A DNA stretch of 64,000 bases from a virus (IMGVR_UViG_3300028591_000095:102641-166640); one strand, 5' to 3'. Shown: positions 4,337-4,437, numbered from the stretch's first letter. Numbers and translations are program-made. The notes: generated from the letters alone by a model not told the origin.

Positions 4337-4415
4337 AAGAGTAGAAATACTCTTACTTCGGTACACATATTCAATATATTACTAGGGGTCTAGTCAACCC
4401 CCACTCTTCGGAGTG
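4337..4415 (+). ncRNA. Structured 5' leader: GAAA hairpin, CUAGUCA-loop hairpin and adjacent cUUCGg hairpin
   Basis: AAGAGTA-GAAA-TACTCTT; GGGGT-CTAGTCA-ACCCC; CACTC-TTCG-GAGTG; same architecture at 63670-63745 (-). Confidence 0.6.
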
Positions 4416-4437
4416 TGATCTTTTAAGGAGGATCATT

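Follow-up and report, generated by a model that had tools for sequence, protein, structure and literature searches.

A conserved RNA structure with an invariant GUCA loop next to the ribosome-binding site in predicted early leaders of uncultured phages

Introduction

In the DNA of an uncultured virus, a short leader that can fold into a row of hairpins separates a predicted early promoter from the RBS of two small genes. What is this RNA, and what might it do at that place? The DNA that we analysed (the window; 64,000 nucleotides) comprises bases 102641-166640 of a 166.6-kb record (IMGVR_UViG_3300028591_000095) that is estimated to be 62% complete. The window has a G+C content of ~36% and encodes a DNA polymerase and a match to phrog_3148, the beta subunit of a phage-type multisubunit RNAP (5294-9580, minus strand, E = 1.2e-139). 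The RNA libraries that hold its sequence are sheep-gut metatranscriptomes. The original prediction, made from the sequence of this locus alone, was of a cis-regulatory RNA on early transcripts that has a conserved CUAGUCA loop on covarying stems, occurs twice in the window, and serves as a protein-binding, processing, or antitermination site.

Results

Both copies follow a predicted early promoter

The features of the first copy are as follows.

4309-4332, plus strand: early promoter, with ATATATATATTAT at 4313-4325, six bases, and a predicted +1 G at 4332
4332-4359, plus strand: 5'-terminal stem-loop with a GAAA loop, from the fold, starting at the predicted +1
4385-4401, plus strand: P2 hairpin, formed by GGGGU (4385-4389), a CUAGUCA loop (4390-4396), and ACCCC (4397-4401)
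4402-4415, plus strand: hairpin at the position of P3, CACUC-UUCG-GAGUG, stacked on P2 with zero spacer
4416-4435, plus strand: SD hairpin, TGATCTTT/GAGGATCA, with the SD AAGGAGG (4425-4431) in its loop and 3' arm
4438-5196, plus strand: two cargo genes (125 aa and 120 aa) without a family match
5257-5285, plus strand: strong intrinsic-terminator-like hairpin after the cargo genes

The second copy lies 59 kb from the first on the opposite strand.

63749-63772, minus strand: early promoter, with a predicted +1 G at 63749 and the consensus part at 63768-63749
63727-63749, minus strand: 5'-terminal stem-loop with a GAAA loop, from the fold
63666-63707, minus strand: full form of the motif, placed with covariance model R1 and the alignments
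63307-63651, minus strand: cargo gene for a 114-aa STIV B116-like protein (PF08960, E = 2.5e-13; phrog_5063)

The 21-mer of the first promoter is identical at 63772-63752 (minus strand), and the window contains three matches to it with at most three mismatches where 0.01 are expected. As defined experimentally (PMC5312081), early promoters used by the virion RNAP of phage AR9 have the extended, AT-rich consensus AAATATATATTAT-N6-G+1. The promoters before both copies fit this consensus and the virus encodes a phage-type multisubunit RNAP, two likenesses to AR9 and phiKZ. We found no sigma-70-type site at ~4300. Transcription from +1 would probably be carried out by a virion RNAP. The third early promoter of the window, at 11344-11440 (plus strand), has two mismatches in the 21-mer and drives a MYG1/UPF0160-like gene (PF03690); its leader has a long-range +1 stem, GAAUAGAGAA...UUCUCUAUUC, and is without the GUCA motif.

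Promoters of the AR9 early type number 14 in the window's record (G000), 17 in its closest long relative (G001; 81% RNAP identity), and seven in a further relative (G005). The subclass with the exact consensus alone precedes the motif, and leaders are 93-121 nt long with the motif versus ~40-55 nt without it. The order in these leaders is a +1 stem-loop, an AU-rich spacer of ~20 nt, the motif, the SD, and the start codon. In copy 1, AGAGTA-GAAA-TACTCT (4338-4353) sits within the longer stem-loop at 4332-4359. This GAAA hairpin had been counted as the first part of the motif. It is present, but it is a property of the promoter class and lies outside the GUCA motif, because 30 of the 38 predicted early transcripts of G000, G001, and G005 begin with a stem-loop (first paired base at nt 1-6). 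GAAA and GAGA loops are used in these +1 hairpins.

The motif has a full and a reduced form

The minimum free energy (MFE) fold of copy 1 consists of exactly four hairpins (-33 kcal/mol, z = -4.0, 0/200 shuffles), followed by the ATG start codon at 4438. It agrees with the predicted stacking of GGGGT-CTAGTCA-ACCCC, without a spacer, on CACTC-TTCG-GAGTG just before the RBS (4385-4415). The suggestion that local pairing could mask the RBS also held, the SD being enclosed in the fold by TGATCTTT/GAGGATCA. The sequence CTAGTCA is rarer than expected in the window (2 versus 7.8), and two of its three occurrences in the 166.6-kb record sit in hairpin loops ~55 nt downstream of identical 21-nt promoters.

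We searched viral, metagenome, and genome collections for relatives using the RNAP gene, the exact promoter string, and a degenerate pattern. A covariance model and a scan of relatives had been proposed together with the motif; our model, R1, was built from six sequences and recovered 22 distinct full forms from ~16 phage contigs. With five reduced forms this gives 27 instances. G001 has six full copies, the window's record one full and one reduced copy, and G005 two reduced copies; the motif was absent from three complete genomes at 57-58% RNAP identity. The motif-positive genomes are 35-68% complete. In bacterial and archaeal genomes, only two of 45 pattern matches were true copies, and the phage-like contigs that carry them had been binned into the same MAG. 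Through the B116-like protein we reached five loci, the closest of which (L009, 54% identity) has a leader without the motif. No relatives were found via the 125-aa cargo protein of copy 1, a blastn search of annotated phage records with window 3800-9800 gave no match, and a shorter promoter pattern returned 47 further loci with zero new copies. Another 26 viral-contig matches to the pattern GTAGAAATACT...CTAGTCA were set aside as chance matches, none fitting model R1.

The full form is a compact four-helix junction. P1 (CUGG/CCAG) is followed by a one-pair stub with a GYAA tetraloop, by P2 (3-5 bp, loop NNN-GUCA or NNN-GUCAA) and one base, G or A, and by P3 (CC...GG, 3-6 bp), a single U, and the 3' strand of P1 leading into the SD. 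In all full forms, this strand either stops 0-2 nt short of the SD or extends into it. The core of the whole family is a P2 hairpin of 3-6 bp whose loop holds the invariant GUCA; the loop is mostly 7 nt long and otherwise 8, U at its second position is not invariant, and 0-1 nt lie between P2 and P3.

Copy 2 belongs to this form (37.3 bits with R1, E ~1e-8). Its P1 pairs UGG (63707-63705) with CCA (63668-63666), its stub is G-GUAA-C (63704-63699), its P2 is (C)GGA/UCC(G) around CUAGUCA (63695-63689) and is followed by a single G, and its P3 is CCAUGA-GUA-UCAUGG (63684-63670) followed by U. The SD AAGAGG is at 63665-63660 and the ATG at 63651 (all minus strand). The single-sequence fold is weaker than that of copy 1 (z = -1.8) and the CGGA/UCCG stem is absent from the MFE structure; only comparison with relatives argues for this probable stem. 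The two copies had been described as sharing one order of elements with an identical loop and different stem sequences. Loop and stems are as described, but the architecture differs, since copy 2 has P1 and the GNRA stub in addition.

Copy 1 (16 bits with R1, E 0.06-0.16) is a reduced form that has P2, P3, and the SD-holding hairpin, without P1 and stub. It is a reduced derivative of the larger four-helix motif, which was invisible from two copies. The same arrangement of P2, stacked hairpin, and SD-carrying hairpin occurs at L075, L054, L047, and L041. The P2 stems of reduced forms are unrelated (GGGGU/ACCCC; CCUUAU/AUAAGG in the AT-rich L047; CGGGA/UCCCG in L041), and their loops are CUAGUCA or CCAGUCA. 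In four of the five, the SD lies inside a covarying hairpin, with stems such as UGAUC/GAUCA (copy 1), GAUUUC/GAAAUC (L054), and GAUUC/GAAUC (L041).

Rfam 15 gave no match to the whole window at gathering thresholds, nor at E<=10 a match at the motif in the full-form loci L067 and L064. Thus, as had been supposed of copy 1, the motif is no known family; it is an undescribed fold outside the families of Rfam. No structured leader of such kind came up when the transcriptome papers on AR9 and phiKZ were searched by keyword.

Between the two genes of the copy-2 operon, at 63232-63202 (minus strand), lies CUGCCCGA/UCGGGCAG, a hairpin whose loop of 15 nt is GGGAGGAUUAUAAUA and whose tail is rich in U. 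A near-identical loop occurs at the equivalent place in L042 (~10520-10560, minus strand), and the hairpin is possibly a terminator, or else another intergenic element that has been conserved. A candidate degenerate copy of the motif before the next gene of this operon (63195-63133) was rejected, its fold being no better than shuffles. A strong intrinsic-terminator-like hairpin (62920-62890, minus strand) closes the operon, so that both motif-bearing operons are promoter-leader-gene(s)-terminator units (terminators at 5257-5285, plus strand, and 62920-62890, minus strand). A pseudoknot of GUCA with downstream UGAC or UGAU, including an AUGACA start context, was not conserved on inspection. In other clades (L233, L238, L247, L264, L051), a plain G+C-rich hairpin stands directly 5' of AAGGAGG, often after GACA, and early leaders in this phage group seem, as a rule, to have a hairpin next to the SD. 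A different conserved leader type of ~120 nt is shared by L164 ~11109 (G001:C1:30909) and L176 ~4459 (G005:C1:63859); it contains CCCUCC, which resembles an anti-SD, and a long hairpin whose loop is (G/A)UUGGUCA.

Compensatory changes maintain the helices

In a model-fitted alignment of 21 distinct sequences, 98.3% of the cells were paired and both sides changed in 9 of the 15 pairs. The covariation score was 0.41 compared to 0.13 +/- 0.016 for shuffled alignments (0/500), and slid-register controls on this alignment were 21-46% paired. Because a model-fitted alignment leans towards its model, we counted again on 22 sequences aligned by MAFFT alone. This second alignment was 95.2% paired with 35 double-change cells, and covariation was again matched in 0/500 shuffles. 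Across the two alignments, compensatory double changes occur at 7-9 helix positions. The stub closes with C-G in 14 sequences and with G-C in eight, in every combination with GUAA or GCAA and with the sequence of P2. RNAalifold recovered P1, P2, and P3 and added a pair between the junction bases (G.U, once A-U), which leaves the junction fully paired; on the MAFFT-only alignment it recovered P3 alone because the variable P2 loop misaligns.

Within the stems, G.U wobbles account for six cells, and the junction G.U is near-invariant (24 of 25 rows). Only the sense strand tolerates such pairs. All six frames of the motif, read from sequence, contain stop codons. Taken with the covariation, these features suggest that the structure forms on the sense strand, in RNA, rather than being a DNA or coding signal. 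Conservation is uneven over the fold. GUCA is invariant in all 27 instances on P2 stems that take at least nine different sequences, and G-Y-A-A persists in the stub. No such constraint is seen in the P3 loop (AAAUUAUGUA, AUU, AUC, AAU, AUA, GUA, UUCG).

At its core the original prediction, a structured RNA element on early transcripts with covarying stems and a conserved loop, is borne out by these alignments of 21-22 sequences. The further copies and the covariation on which it depended were found in relatives, and contigs from RNA libraries cover the leader. We are nearly certain that the motif is a real, selected RNA structure. It could instead have no RNA function and be either a relic of recent promoter-cassette duplication or a DNA-level recombination site for shuffling. 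Near-identical leaders recur in different cassettes, even in phages that differ in cargo, which is what shuffling like that of PeSL cassettes would produce (PMC2839356). This explanation leaves unaccounted for the compensatory double changes, the restriction of G.U pairs to the sense strand, the stops in all frames, and a loop that is kept on stems sharing no sequence, such as those of L047 and L041, and we give it hardly any credence.

The promoter and leader behave as a cassette

The genes behind the motif are unrelated ORFans. Downstream of 26 instances, the small proteins form 19 unrelated clusters that are nearly devoid of Pfam matches, and no homologs of the G001 cargo genes were found in the window's record. 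In one pair of orthologs, the motif is present in one phage and missing in the other. Window 4374-4444 and L075:5393-5463, a G005-type leader, differ at two of 71 nt, and their downstream genes are unrelated; the same sheep-gut RNA libraries contain both leader forms. Because near-identical leaders drive unrelated cargo genes, the promoter-leader unit behaves as a shuffled cassette. One motif-driven cargo protein of 386 aa (L040:10622-11779, minus strand) has a weak match to an HNH endonuclease (PF13392, E = 2.7e-5), which hints that some cassettes carry homing-type genes.

In the T4-type phages RB49 and phi1, PeSL cassettes are repeated units of a strong early promoter and a stem-loop that flank unrelated ORFans and seem to mediate their shuffling (PMC2839356). 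The units described here are similar in that early-promoter-plus-stem-loop units are repeated in G000, G001, and G005 and the GUCA leader stands before 19 cargo families. They differ in their promoters, which are of the AR9 virion-RNAP type whereas those of PeSL are sigma-70-like, and in their stem-loops, which in PeSL are terminators. By the usual criterion for an intrinsic terminator or attenuator, a G+C-rich hairpin plus a U tract, P3 of copy 1 with TGATCTTTTA was flagged as weak, and P3 with the following UGAUCUUUU likewise as a weak terminator-like site; this is the one terminator-like P3. The full forms have GGUCCAGGAGG after P3, without a U tract, and sit at the RBS.

The motif keeps to the SD

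The position of the motif is tied to the SD. The copy at L042:10444 is at an SD in a promoter-distal intergenic site of an operon, with no promoter within 260 nt upstream, and that at L040:14654 is at an SD although it is ~240 nt from its promoter. This disfavours the antitermination role that had been offered, in which a nascent two-hairpin RNA would modify the polymerase in the manner of HK022 put or lambda nut/boxB. The putL and putR sites of HK022 have two adjacent stem-loops separated by no more than one unpaired base; they are placed by the promoter and terminators and act on RNAP. The GUCA motif resembles them in having two stacked hairpins 0-1 nt apart, downstream of early promoters and made early from both genome arms, with one arm of the motif capped by a GNRA-type loop as in nut. 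Terminator-like hairpins within early operons (63232-63202, minus strand; L042) could provide something to read through. By contrast, every copy of the motif abuts an SD, copies recur before single genes and far from promoters, and the motif is carried by only 2 of the 14 early promoters of G000 and 5 of the 17 of G001. Lambda nut consists of boxA and a boxB hairpin of ~5 bp with a GNRA-like loop, whereas the GYAA loop of the stub is closed by one pair and the alignment has no boxA-like conserved stretch. We consider antitermination very improbable.

A processing signal, also among the roles first proposed, would have a host or phage endoribonuclease cut beside the fold to separate cistrons, trim leaders, or inactivate mRNA at the SD. 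RNase III sites separate the early genes of T7, and RegB of T4 inactivates early mRNAs at the SD. The motif occurs once per gene, including the intergenic site in L042, an AU-rich single-stranded spacer lies directly 5' of it, and its conserved loops could be nuclease determinants. Its helices of 3-7 bp are, however, too short for RNase III. The RNA contigs also lack an end at a fixed place. Contigs of two sheep-gut RNA libraries cover window 4411-5630 and the shared leader segment, and one contig of the G005-type leader starts within ~1 nt of the predicted +1; being assembled contigs, from which a 5' end is not provable and which possibly include DNA, they give a hint of transcription from the G005-type +1. 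The single end inside the motif, at 4411, was rejected as a processing site: it lies 33 nt before the point where two phages of the same sample diverge and is an assembly break at a k-mer branch between them rather than an RNA end. Processing is, in our judgment, an improbable role.

A sensor RNA, either a small riboswitch or a tRNA-like element that responds to a metabolite, a tRNA, or a tRNA-binding enzyme, would be in keeping with four helices in cloverleaf order, a P2 loop of mostly 7 nt, and a P1 that overlaps the SD as in translational riboswitches. The fully paired junction nevertheless has zero conserved unpaired bases to form a pocket, and the 19 unrelated cargo clusters are functionally incoherent, neither of which fits a riboswitch. 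As to tRNA, the loop has 7 or 8 nt with a variable U at position 2, a single pair makes up the 'D arm', conservation is lacking in the P3 loop, ARAGORN found nothing at the motif, and Rfam was negative. The phage tRNAs in the relatives are Leu, Gln, Met, and Lys only. The chance that the motif is a sensor seems to us slighter still than that of antitermination.

Discussion

What the motif does at the RBS is less certain than its structure. The reading that we tentatively favour, at somewhat under an even chance, is a recognition site for a trans-acting factor, one that would govern translation or stability at the RBS. That a loop is recognised in a sequence-specific manner is suggested because GUCA is fixed and the stub keeps G-Y-A-A, while the P2 stems and the P3 loop vary. 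Since the motif always contacts the SD, through P1 or the SD hairpin, it would act on translation initiation or on RBS-linked stability. The motif would then be a cis-acting structured module in the 5' leaders of virion-RNAP-type early transcripts, borne by jumbo phages from ruminant guts that appear to form one sub-clade of the AR9/phiKZ-like group. The exposed invariant loops (GUCA, and GYAA where present) could form the recognition surface for a phage or host protein, which on binding would either stabilise the SD-contacting helix or open it. The bound state may in this way set translation initiation, and hence mRNA lifetime, for interchangeable accessory early genes. In the reduced form, the local SD-carrying hairpin replaces P1 and the stub. 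Both the binding factor and an effect on translation are parts of this model that we infer.

Several observations speak against such an operator. P1 covers only one or two nucleotides of the SD, and predicted SD accessibility is modestly lower in leaders with the motif (0.44, n=9) than in other early leaders (0.61, n=21). Other clades have a plain hairpin at the same place before AAGGAGG, which fits a passive role, and several of the loops are classic stability tetraloops (GNRA, UUCG). The main rival is such a passive module, in which a stable fold 5' of the SD would insulate the RBS and block 5'-to-3' decay or the entry of an endonuclease. In Bacillus, mRNAs are protected from RNase J1 and RNase Y by structures at the 5' end and by elements close to the RBS, and 5' stabilisers in Firmicutes block 5'-to-3' decay or endonuclease entry. 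The simple hairpins of other clades, the richness in stability tetraloops (GYAA and UUCG, with GAAA and GAGA in the +1 hairpins), and the perfectly paired junction are all consistent with this, and unrelated cargo genes imply a generic signal. A passive fold does not explain why GUCA is invariant in a 7-8 nt loop across at least nine P2 stems when the P3 loop varies freely. Moreover, the 5' end is already protected by the +1 stem-loop, and the SD is partly enclosed rather than freed. We regard the passive module as a serious but rather unlikely explanation.

Post-transcriptional control of early phage genes has precedents that can be compared with the proposed recognition site. In T4, RegA sites, the gene 43 operator hairpin, and RegB cleavage at GGAG are short linear or single-hairpin signals. 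They resemble the role proposed here in acting on many early mRNAs near the SD and have no sequence or structural similarity to the GUCA motif. The nearest precedent for an operator is that of Aca1 and Aca2, which bind structured 5'-UTR RNA motifs and thereby repress early anti-defence operons (PMC13551039). By analogy, both cases would involve structured leader RNA, accessory genes expressed early and strongly, action at the RBS (here proposed), and a signal common to several operons. Aca motifs, however, lie in acr-aca operons that encode their own HTH/RHH regulator. We found no HTH, RHH, or RNA-binding domain with Pfam (E<=1) in the four proteins of the window's motif operons, a further point against an operator, and no HTH or RHH regulator (E<=0.01) in ten cargo proteins of relatives. 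The GUCA motif also differs in being a four-helix junction with a GUCA loop, and its binding protein is hypothetical.

An extension of the recognition-site reading, which we think unlikely, is that a single factor reads the GUCA and GYAA loops and switches the exchangeable accessory early genes together at the RBS. This would be a phage-wide post-transcriptional regulon built on a small four-way junction whose helices follow a cloverleaf-like order and which has a loop the size of an anticodon loop, and its accessory genes would possibly be anti-defence genes. The factor could arrive in the virion or be made early, or else it could be a tRNA- or rRNA-binding protein hijacked from the host.

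In jumbo phages with their own RNAPs, early control is thought to be mainly promoter-based. A conserved, covarying fold fixed at the RBS points to a second, post-transcriptional layer of control for a subset of early genes. The four-way junction with its one-pair GNRA stub and GUCA loop has a size that would allow structure and binding to be studied directly, and the compact, portable promoter-leader cassette might serve for expression in Firmicutes. The motif tags hypervariable ORFan cargo and could thus mark accessory, possibly anti-defence, genes in uncultured rumen phages. If a single-factor regulon does exist, the motif would also be a marker for such genes in uncultured jumbo phages.
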